From Eledone cirrhosa (taxonomy: Eukaryota): a DNA stretch of 64,000 nt. Of the stretch, positions 44,171-57,176 are shown piece by piece. Location of the stretch: the NCBI GenBank assembly GCA_964016885.1, contig OZ024766.1, positions 17,918,001-17,982,000 of the forward strand. The letters are read 5' to 3'. Position 1 is the stretch's first letter. Each line of letters begins with the position of its first letter. The translations under genes were made by a program, and so were the position numbers. The notes beneath the pieces were generated by a model. That model ran no database searches. It was not told the origin of the DNA and saw nothing but the letters and a program-made list of their open reading frames with translations.

Positions 44171-44208
44171 GCCGACAATGTTTCGTCCTATTAAGGACTC
44201 ATCAGGGC
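44171..44208 (-). ncRNA. Minimal type-I hammerhead ribozyme motif with a canonical core
   Basis: Minus strand: GCC CUGAUGA GUCCU uaau AGGAC GAAA C auu G UC|GGC. Confidence 0.75.
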
Positions 44209-44580
44209 AATCAAAACAACAAGAAGTATATCGGCAGATACAAGCCGGAAACTCTGAATATATATATATATATAAATACAATATCGGAGAAAGCTTTTAG
44301 CGATACTCCGGCCGAATTCCAACTCACTCAACAAACATTAGGAAATAAGTGATTATATTCCTAATTAAGCGTTTGGGGTGCTAACTAAAAGTATTGCGTG
44401 GAAAAATTGGCTGTATTATTTCATATGAGACATATCTAATATATCTCTTCCCAGCCGGACGTCTCTTTTCATTATAGGATTCTTACAATTTGGGTGAAAT
44501 TATACCAATTTATGTAGGAGCTTATATACCATCAATAGATATATATTCAAGTGGGCTCCTATAATTCATCAGTGGGTGCC

Positions 44581-44634
<54 letters not shown>

Positions 44635-44638
<4 letters not shown>

Positions 44639-45255
44639 GAGGTTATATTTAATTTGTTGGGATACAACAAGCAAAATATTTTTATAACTGATATAAAGCA
44701 CTCAACAAATTATTGGAGTAAATATACAATATATTAACAAATGGAAACTATATTTATAAAACCATATTTATTTCATTATACATATTTCAAGGACACCAAG
44801 TTAAATTATGGTGTGCTTTCATCAGATAAAATATAATATAGAACAGTTTTATAAATAAATATTGACATACCCTTAAAGAATGCAACCATTTTTGTTGGAA
44901 GCTCTTTCTCTGCCTCTGTAACCCAACGGCTTATTTTAAAAATATCCTATACTAACTTATCTAATAATTAAAGCTACAACCCGGGAGCTTCCAACAGTAA
45001 TGGTTGCATTCTTTAAGGGTATGTCAATATTTATTTATAAAACTGTTCTATATTATATTTTATCTGATGAAAGCACACCATAATTTAACTTGGTGTCCTT
45101 GAAATATGTATAATGAAATAAATATTGTTTTATAAATATAGTTTCTATTTTTTAATATCGTATTTTTACTCCAAATATTTGTTGAGTGCTTTATATCAGT
45201 TATAAAAATATTTGCTTGTTGTATCCCAACAATTTAAATAGAACTTTACACACAT
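44635..45255. mobile_element. About 620-bp fold-back element with a hammerhead motif in each arm (Penelope-like)
   Basis: Arms about 44635-44904 and 44985-45255; motif at 45056-45120 (+) and 44769-44833 (-). Confidence 0.8.
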
Positions 45256-45259
45256 ATAC

Positions 45260-45558
45260 ACTGAGGATGAAAAACTCAGAACTGTATGGGAGCATCCCAA
45301 AAGTCAGCTCAAAAGTGACACAGAGGAGACTGAGGTTAGCTGGACATGCTCACCGACATCCAGAGTTGACATTGCACTCAGTGCTCCTTTGGGAGCCCCT
45401 ACACGGACACACTAGAAGAGGAAGACCAAGGTTAACGTATGTTGATGCCCTAAGAACAGACACTGGTCTGTTGGAGACGCAGGACATGGCAGCGATAATG
45501 AGGGACAGAGACCGCTGGAGAGAACTCGTCCATGGATCTCGGGAATTTTACCCGCCTT

Positions 45559-45561
<3 letters not shown>
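45260..45561 (+). mobile_element. RTE-clade LINE 3' end (5'-truncated)
   Basis: NSELYGSIPKVSSKVTQRRLRLAGHAHRHPE...LLWEPLHGHTRRGRPRLTYVDALRTDTG...MRDRDRWRELV*, a typical RTE ORF C-terminus, followed by (TA)n. Confidence 0.88.
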
Positions 45562-49821: not shown

Positions 49822-49933
49822 TGGTGAATCAGGTGCCGGCAAAACTGAGAGTACAAAGAAGGTGATAATGTATTTTGCGGAGGTGGCCGCTACATGGGAA
49901 AAAAAACGTGAGAAACTATTCAATAACAGAGCT
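49822..49933 (+). CDS. Mhc: Myosin heavy chain alternative exon 5a (P-loop plus loop-1 start)
   Basis: aatgtag acceptor; 112 nt T+[37 protein letters not shown]; GTAAGT donor. Same length and phases (2 to 0) as 52834-52945. Confidence 0.93.
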
Positions 49934-49974
49934 GTAAGTTTGTTTTAGGGTTCCACCATCTTTCCTTATTTGTA

Positions 49975-52833: not shown

Positions 52834-52945
52834 TGGTGAGTCCGGTGCTGGTAAAACTGAAAACACCAAAAAAGTCATCCAGTACTTCGCTCTTGTCGCC
52901 GCTTGTCTTGATGGCAAGAAAAAGAAGGACGATGAGGAAAAGAAG
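52834..52945 (+). CDS. Mhc: Myosin heavy chain alternative exon 5b (P-loop plus loop-1 start)
   Basis: ccccaacag acceptor; 112 nt T+[37 protein letters not shown]; GTAGCG donor. Confidence 0.95.
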
Positions 52946-53399
52946 GTAGCGTTTACGGAGCAGACTATTTCCGCATGCTGGGCCTCGTGTGTGGTTTTCT
53001 CCCCCTCTTTCTTTCATCTCTCTATCTCTTTTTTTTCTTATTCTCTATCATTTCTTTCCTTTGTGTGTATTTTACAAATTAAAAGAAAAAAAACAAAAAA
53101 AAACTTTCTATATTGGGTCAAGTATGAAATTTGTAGAAACTTATAGAAAAAAATTAACAAATTTCTACAAATTTCATATTTGACGACCCGATATGACAGG
53201 AAATGAGTTGCAGCGAGCGATGCGTGTGTAAATATTTTCGTAAAATTGTAAAAAATCAAAACCGGAAACAGAAGTAGCTGTGAAATTGCCAATTTCCGTT
53301 ATAAATAGCAACAAGTCGGATTGAAATATATTGAAAAATATATTAAATATATTTTATAATACAATTAATAAAATCCTGTAGTTTACTTGAAGCATTGTA

Positions 53400-53950: not shown

Positions 53951-54774
53951 ATATATATATATTATATACATATATATATATATATACATACATATATATA
54001 TATATTATATATATATATATATATATAATATTATATATATATTATATATATATACATACATATATATATATATATATTATATGTATATATATATATATAT
54101 TATATATATATATTATATATATATACATATATATATATATTATATACATATGTATATACATATATATATATATTATATACATATATATATATATATATAT
54201 TATATACATATATATATATATATTATATATATATATATACATATTATATATATATATTATATATATATATATACATATTATATATATATATTATATATAT
54301 ATATATACATATTATATATATATATATACATATATATATATACATATACATATATATATATGTATATATATATATGTATGTATATATATATATATATATA
54401 TAAAACAAAGGAAATGTGGTAAGGAACCAGACGGACCATAACGCACCAGAGTACTCAATACAGTCCAGAAATAGCCGTCGAAACGGCTTGAGCTCTGCCG
54501 TCGGGGTCTTACTTTTTCCTATATATATATATGTGTGTGTTAGATTTTCAAACGTCTGTCCGTTTGTCACAACGTCCATCAGAGTGGTTTTTGATTTTCT
54601 TTTTACATTACCCTAACAAACTATACTAACACGTTGAATTTGAATCAGGCATTTAGGGAGTCAATATGGCGGCCCTCGGGCCTCCCTAGCGGCCCCTTTT
54701 GCTTCGTATTCATCTCAACACTCCCCCCTCCCCTCCTCACCCTGTTATTTGTCATTTAAGTTTAGCTATTAGGC

Positions 54775-56551: not shown

Positions 56552-57176
56552 CTAGATAACTGCTCCTTTTAAAAAATATTTCTAGTATTATTAGTAATTT
56601 TAGGATTTGAACTCTCTTGAGCCGTCTTCCTAATATATATATATATATATATATATAGAGTTTTTTTCAGAATGTATTTGACTGCTATTTCTTGTAAATA
56701 AACATTCACTTCCATCCTGACGTCACTAGCCCCGTTTTTTCCTCATGTGCTTTTTCATAAATACACATGAAGGCGAACTAGCCAGTTTTAGAATTCCCTT
56801 TTTCGGACTATATTACTGTGAGAGCCCTGGTTTTCTGTTGAGCTCTGCTGATGAATGATATTCCAACCGTTACCATCTCCACTGAAAGTTTTCATGAAAT
56901 AGTCTTTTAAGACTATACAGAGCATTTGATGTTATTCCAAATTGAAGGATAAGTGTTTCAGACTTTGTTTTATCATGAGTTAAAGGTCTATAGATTTTTC
57001 CATGGATTTTACTAAATTCTGTGGATGAATTTGTATCCTGATTCTCTTTTGAGATGAGTTTGAGTTATTTTTCCTAAATCTTTCGTTAACTACTTTTCCC
57101 ATCTTGACGTTATAGTCGCATATATGTTATAGAATGCCGTTAGCTTCTTGCTAAAACAATCTCTATACCTCTCATT

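Follow-up and report, generated by a model that had tools for sequence, protein, structure and literature searches.

Paired hammerhead motifs in an octopus myosin intron: a fold-back element best read as two truncated PLE-like copies joined head to head

An intron of an octopus myosin heavy chain gene contains a long fold-back element, the right arm of which carries a hammerhead motif in the sense orientation of the gene while the left arm carries the same motif on the opposite strand. The question raised by this locus is whether the hairpin is a device that holds back a ribozyme until the host releases it, or the remnant of a mobile element in which the motif is simply carried along. A sequence-only reading of the window (the whole stretch of DNA analysed, 64,000 nucleotides) had proposed a sense hammerhead masked by its own antisense arm. 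Here we argue, with a probability of about 0.85, that the element arose as two 5'-truncated copies of a Penelope-like element (PLE, a retrotransposon) inserted head to head in a (TA)n tract and that the hammerhead is an inert passenger. The pattern itself is published (PMC4209133, PMC8557442, PMC3846280); new is one further instance of it, in an octopus myosin intron. Published papers are cited for those portions of their text and supplements that were accessible.

RESULTS

Position of the Element within the Myosin Gene

The host is a + strand gene for a myosin heavy chain with a Pfam Myosin_head match. Against a protein of Octopus bimaculoides one exon reaches 100% identity across 52 aa, and exons 1 and 2 reach 94–95%, which makes the source an octopus, though not necessarily of that species. 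The element had been placed between exon 4 and the exon 5a/5b cluster with its motif in the sense direction, and both points are confirmed (Table 1): it lies ~1.0 kb past the upstream donor and 4.6 kb before exon 5a, and the right-arm motif is on the + strand, as is the gene. The intron, with the element, is predicted to be removed by normal splicing, and nothing supports a link between the element and exon choice.

Two features of the gene model itself may be recorded. Exon 4 has 29 nt where the homologue implies 28; a surplus C within a short run puts the reading frame out and is probably an assembly error. Around loop 1 there are two consecutive pairs of alternative exons (49822–49942 and 52834–52946, followed by 60558–60665 and 62065–62154), the octopus protein P0001 using the first and the fourth and the squid protein P0002 matching the second and the third.

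Table 1. Coordinates of the fold-back element, its hammerhead motifs and related features in the window
Feature	Position	Strand	Details
(TA)n microsatellite, left end of element	44584–44630		Likely insertion target
Left arm	44631–44904	-	3' end of repeat (PLE pLTR-like), outward-facing into (TG)n/(TA)n
Spacer, 80 nt	44905–44984		Head-to-head junction inside; depth V-shaped, minimum near 44960
Right arm	44985–45254	+	Second 3' end, same repeat family as left arm
Adjoining separate high-copy repeat at right end	45255–45560	+	Loose ends at 45255; no Pfam match
Minimal type I hammerhead	45056–45120	+	Sense to host gene; stem I 8 bp; CUGAUGA 45064–45070 (C3 45064); stem II 45071–45100; GAAA; self-complementary stem III strand 45104–45111; AUA triplet; cleavage base A17 45112, predicted cut after A45112
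Mirror hammerhead	44769–44833	-	Antisense to host gene; C3 44825, A17 44777
Coding exon 4 (DRENQ...)	43596–43624	+	Upstream border of intron 4
First alternative GESGAGKT (loop 1) exon, 5a	49822–49942	+	Downstream border of intron; 3' end approximate
Second alternative GESGAGKT exon	52834–52946	+	Start about 52834
Second fold-back, outward hammerheads in both arms	3645–4043		C3 3886+, 3802-; stem III AGUACU; (TA)n flanks
Third fold-back, outward hammerhead cores in both arms	4100–4311		C3 4185-, 4226+; stem III ACCA-C-UGGU

Geometry of the Fold-back

Arms of about 270 bp had been described, and this is borne out by a whole-arm BLAST comparison with 93.8% identity across 274 columns. The inverted-repeat match comprises 174 nt at 97% (44731–44904 against 44985–45158) and a further 59 nt at 93%, in an element that spans ~620 bases, has a GC content of 0.26 and contains no ORF. 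As RNA, a 631-nt segment folds at −379 kcal/mol against −105.5 ± 4.6 kcal/mol for 20 shuffles (z about −60), and the hairpin has 222 A in 600 nt. Examination of the ends for a target-site duplication found a microsatellite on one side and another repeat on the other. The repeat on the right looks like an RTE-type LINE of which a truncated 3' end is left. The window was found to contain no direct repeat of the arm, and there is no same-strand head-to-tail tandem such as retrozymes have.

The Two Hammerhead Motifs

The right-arm motif is present as it had been described, with its 8-bp stem I, CUGAUGA, stem II, GAAA and AUA triplet, and the mirror copy on the opposite strand likewise stands, being identical over 45056–45120; both motifs face outward, with 239 nt between their C3 positions. 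Stem II consists of 3+6 bp with one C–C mismatch, and its first pair is A45071–U45100, not G10.1–C11.1. The description fails at stem III, which had been drawn as a UA-ug-UA hairpin: this would need a 2-nt loop and cannot close, and the 8-nt strand (AUAUGUAU) is instead self-complementary at 8/8 positions. Judged by its sequence, the motif has the conserved core and helices I and II of a minimal type I hammerhead, together with a stem III of the dimer-dependent type, like that of PLE hammerheads. Dimeric PLE hammerheads are reportedly the subject of a paper by Lunse et al. (2017), from which no evidence is drawn here.

A relaxed hammerhead scan gave 6 matches in the window and none in 200/200 locally (block-) shuffled windows. 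Rfam gave 0 matches at the gathering score in the 64 kb, and at E ≤ 10 no model matched the target motif, Hammerhead_1 (RF00163) included. Rejected at that threshold were miRNA look-alikes driven by hairpins; a metagenome pattern match (L001) was likewise dismissed as chance, lying inside a 285-aa ORF and lacking the stems.

The Arm as a High-copy Repeat

A 916-nt query (44640–45555), which includes the adjoining LINE-like piece, was matched in part by 20 of the 24 listed public runs under 17 organism labels, none of the runs being recorded as RNA. Four of them (X1, X5, X6 and X22) were aligned to 44905–45555 at 85% likeness; runs X10–X20 held small shares and were left out of the evidence. 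The arm and the hammerhead region appear in X1, X5 and X6, under three organism labels. In X1, where 12,283 contigs aligned to 44905–45555, the summed depth, which conveys a relative trend only and no copy number, is about 2.0e6 at 45103–45124, 8.4e5 at 45037–45058 and 5.5e4 at 44971–44992, and within the spacer about 5e3 at 44905–44948 and 466 at 44949–44970. The arm is a high-copy (mass) repeat, and in all four runs depth peaks near the outer arm end and drops by orders of magnitude inward, the spacer lying about 170- to 4,000-fold below the arm in X1 and about 100- to 1,400-fold below it in the raw reads of X22. This inward fall fits 5'-truncated retrotransposition and not a unit that moves with its spacer. 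Loose ends of family copies enter TA repeats at 45150, 45158, 45163, 45247 and 45258, and there are two classes of family 3' end, about 45150–45163 or about 45247, some 85–95 nt apart; A17 of the hammerhead lies near these ends.

The same data bear on a MITE- or Foldback-type DNA transposon, a single 620-nt unit that had captured a hammerhead in long terminal inverted repeats. Such a unit would share the long inverted arms, the short spacer, the AT-rich composition and the lack of an ORF, but its spacer should have been amplified with the arms and is 100- to 4,000-fold rarer (X1, X22), the family ends are variable and enter (TA)n, and three sequence-unrelated fold-backs in the window share the hammerhead geometry, so that we regard this origin as highly improbable.

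The expectation that family copies would keep the core held as far as the variants compared go. Among 40 of the 72 rows of family variants, 9 fall in the 65-nt motif and 0 in the core or stem I, an absence with p = 0.003 for core plus stem I and 0.14 for the core alone. The variants hit both partners of one stem II pair (C45076T and G45095A), and G45108A makes stem III perfect, a fully Watson–Crick palindrome. Rows with A>G changes were rejected as signs of editing; the runs are DNA or unlabelled and the rows are family variants.

Origin of the Second Arm

If the second arm did not arrive as a copy of its own, a solo PLE end could have been duplicated and inverted after insertion by template switching in replication, or the assembly could have folded back on itself. 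The 127 nt that are identical between the arms (44999–45125) would suit either course, as would the apparent one-base error in exon 4, and among the rows shown, in a comparison of the right arm and spacer, no record spans the arm–spacer–arm junction. Against this, the inversion stops where the repeat stops and no flanking sequence is duplicated. The arms differ at 15 alignment columns and their flanks are unlike, which argues against a fold-back read artefact, and the outer-arm differences carry two common family letters, unlike those of a local copy. We hold a later inversion or an artefact to be very improbable.

The distribution of these differences is itself uneven: 11 of the columns belong to the outermost 93 nt (Fisher test, p = 0.004 when columns are counted and 0.02 when events are). 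Setting aside 45126 and 45146, which are private right-arm changes, the left-arm letter is a family variant (11–51% of X1 depth) in 5 of the 7 other substitution events, the right-arm letter also being common. Independent mutation would give that 5/7 with p of about 1e-6 to 5e-5, using 27 and 59 polymorphic sites (at least 26 were seen), in a test made of summed contig depths and a post hoc count. As a lead, the outer arms may come from two templates, or from conversion by other copies, with the inner part homogenised later.

Other Fold-backs and Hammerheads in the Window

Hammerhead cores occur in only three of 19 inverted-repeat rows, namely the target and the second and third fold-backs of Table 1. 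The latter two share no sequence with the target, have a palindromic stem III and TA-rich flanks, and lie outside the coding span, the first coding exon being some 26 kb further downstream; the hammerhead of the third fold-back with C3 at 4226+ has its stem I cut off.

Several other repeats were noted. A solo compact hammerhead, antisense to the gene, lies 420 nt from the element at 44167–44211 (-) and matches Rfam Hammerhead_1 with 31.7 bits (E 2.3e-5), short of the 34 required at gathering. The target family has degenerate relatives at 3300–3370 (motif at 3340) and 34930–35061, 79% and 68% alike. A fold-back at 13537–13843 has a (TA)n centre and inward-facing hammerhead-like half motifs (CAGAAGA) in both arms, with a partial third copy to about 13960, and is possibly a pair of tail-to-tail insertions in one microsatellite. 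Hairpin repeats of about 130 nt without hammerhead cores cluster at 35230–36640, with kin at about 3400–3650 and 54150–54530. Minisatellites, their units about 48 and 72 nt long, form arrays at 1596–3113, 4999–7353 and 14246–14958, the 72-nt array at two places.

Predicted Folding of the Sense Motif

The upstream arm had been proposed to sequester the ribozyme in dsRNA, and computation bears this out: in the whole element every tested hammerhead base is paired to the left arm (p ≥ 0.997), and this pairing holds in all co-transcriptional snapshots. When the left arm is removed from the calculation, the helix III pair probability is about 0, and that of helix I is 0.52 for the isolated motif and 0.03 and 0.002 in two longer contexts. 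The active fold is thus not predicted even without the left arm, and the sense hammerhead likely stays unfolded in the myosin pre-mRNA as an inert passenger. Masking of this kind comes with every head-to-head pair, whatever the orientation of the gene; it is no sign of special design, since any such pair supplies one sense motif with its complement upstream. The special masked design that the sequence-only reading implied is therefore not upheld: the element is a mass repeat, two unrelated fold-backs have the same design, and the fold is predicted to be inactive once the left arm is gone.

These calculations also weigh on a switch used by the host, in which the hairpin masks an active ribozyme and editing or unwinding frees it to cleave the nascent intron, with an effect on whether exon 5a or 5b is used. 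Such a switch is favoured by an intact sense motif that has an identical copy in the other arm, by the predicted masking, by a site upstream of alternative loop-1 exons and by the very high hyper-editing in octopus (PMC5625713). However, the computed probability of the active monomer fold is about 1e-4 and an intermolecular stem III duplex is computed at only −2.2 kcal/mol; a same-orientation partner would be needed, and the other kin in the window are degenerate (3340; 34930–35061). The A-rich core bases would themselves be targets of editing, the element belongs to a mass repeat and is separated from exon 5a by 4.6 kb, and in the accessible part of PMC11167929 the RNA-seq of an Anolis PLE has no reads that end at the hammerhead site. 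A host switch of this kind is extremely improbable. In octopus, dsRNA of this length and near-perfect pairing would be a plausible substrate for ADAR (PMC5625713), and A-to-I editing, by analogy with other such repeats, would probably be a by-product of the hairpin.

A second sense motif, hammerhead-like and solitary, occurs at 56842–56923 (+), downstream of the second GESGAGKT exon in the intron that precedes the next pair of alternative exons. Here stem III can close as a true hairpin (p 0.96–1.0), stem I has 6 bp and no arm masks the motif; stem II, of 4 bp, is not predicted to form. On these models it is a better candidate than the reported motif for monomer cleavage of the pre-mRNA.

DISCUSSION

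The reading that we prefer, two truncated copies joined head to head, assigns the arms to PLEs by their structure. The PLE traits present are a hammerhead near the 3' end, a trend of 5' truncation, an inverted head-to-head copy and a bias for (TA)n. No RT or GIY-YIG remnant was found by Pfam in 99 of 118 nearby stop-to-stop frames, and the copies are too short to hold an ORF; the sole Pfam match in those frames, to Tospovirus, was below the cut-off and unrelated. Searched with short exact strings, the accessible part of the supplement of Craig et al. (PMC8557442) lacks the motifs of the target family, and strings from all three fold-back families gave two short look-alikes there, in other elements.

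We suggest that a PLE protein supplied in trans would have cut the (TA)n tract, that the 3' end of its RNA would have been reverse-transcribed with an early stop, and that the 5' ends of two such short copies would then have been fused. The hammerhead of the parent element would act as a dimer in cutting a tandem precursor RNA; once inside the myosin pre-mRNA, the arms would pair with each other, the hairpin forming while it is transcribed. Precedents exist for the separate parts of this scheme. The PLE protein of Frangieh et al. (PMC11167929) cuts and extends both strands, and hammerhead cleavage was unnecessary for insertion in vitro, with no RNA-seq ends at the cut site. Head-to-head is the most frequent inverted form according to Arkhipova et al. 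(PMC3846280), and in the account of Craig et al. (PMC8557442) an inverted, 5'-truncated copy sits next to the 5' end, the targets are (TA)n and a tail of 30–40 bp is optional. In O. vulgaris, PLEs of 190 families occupy 6.83% of the genome (PMC13282606). We found no publication that describes such an arrangement for octopus or deals with its editing; the family may already be present in the repeat library of O. vulgaris or in bioRxiv supplements.

The single locus matters little, being the fossil of a described insertion pattern. More generally, it is an example of how PLE ends, and not MITEs, can account for fold-backs in octopus assemblies. A wider reading, which as a whole we think unlikely, would have three parts: head-to-head PLE doublets would be self-muzzling and kept in introns where solo sense copies are purged; doublets, three per 64 kb here, could rank among the main sources of the tight dsRNA that underlies hyper-editing in octopus; and the mosaic arms of this copy, with unlike family alleles on the outside and identity on the inside, would be the trace of two RNA templates whose priming used both strands of a single cut. 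Were it true, counts of solo versus paired orientations in introns would provide a genome-only test of PLE hammerhead cleavage in vivo, and in vivo cutting by minimal PLE hammerheads is an open point in the accessible text of PMC4209133 and PMC8557442. Arm mosaics would in turn bear on the origin of PLE inverted repeats.

Comparison with Known Systems

The closest likeness is to inverted insertions of endonuclease-bearing PLEs such as Penelope-13_HM, which has the same hammerhead on both strands (PMC8557442, supplement), and Adineta Pen2a (PMC8557442, PMC3846280), with which the element shares outward 3' ends, identical hammerheads on opposite strands and a (TA)n target. It also shares with these head-to-head insertions the 5' truncation and a hammerhead 40–140 nt from the 3' end; unlike them it has no ORF, its optional 3' extension seems to be longer (85–95 nt against a described tail of 30–40 nt), and its outer arms may come from different family variants.

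At the level of the motif, Cervera and De la Pena (PMC4209133) describe dual min-HHRs 100–700 bp apart on opposite strands and a palindromic helix III in PLE terminal repeats, of which two copies are needed, a single motif remaining uncut and dimers being weak. The target motif has the same CUGANGA/GAAA/NUH core, long helix II, short palindromic helix III and dual arrangement; it differs in its A–U first helix II pair, C–C mismatch, 8-bp helix I and AUA triplet. G10.1–C11.1 is highly conserved in that study, and several Hydra PLE motifs in the supplement of PMC8557442 are also without it. Like Hydra-clade PLEs, among them Hydra-1_Obim, the target prefers (TA)n and carries its hammerhead near the 3' end (the O. 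bimaculoides Hydra PLE has its own at position 2403 of 2507 nt; PMC8557442, supplement), whereas its stems match none of the Hydra-clade rows accessible there. The other two fold-backs come nearer: the third has the ACCA-N-UGGU stem III of Hydra-1_Obim, and the second resembles the ctgaagat/tgc...gca/tgaa type of Hydra elements (PMC8557442).

Non-LTR retrozymes (bioRxiv 10.64898/2026.07.22.740005) are, like the target as read here, non-coding, PLE-derived and equipped with a type I hammerhead, but they are head-to-tail tandems, whereas the target is head-to-head and has no same-strand partner. For the RNA, PMC5625713 reports that palindromic repeats serve as ADAR substrates, that Penelope is heavily edited in lizard and that hyper-editing is very high in octopus. 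The Xenopus Harbinger palindrome of that paper is, like the target, a self-folding repeat that gives tight dsRNA without a second insertion; the target differs from it in being probably derived from a retroelement, locus-specific and a putative editing substrate.
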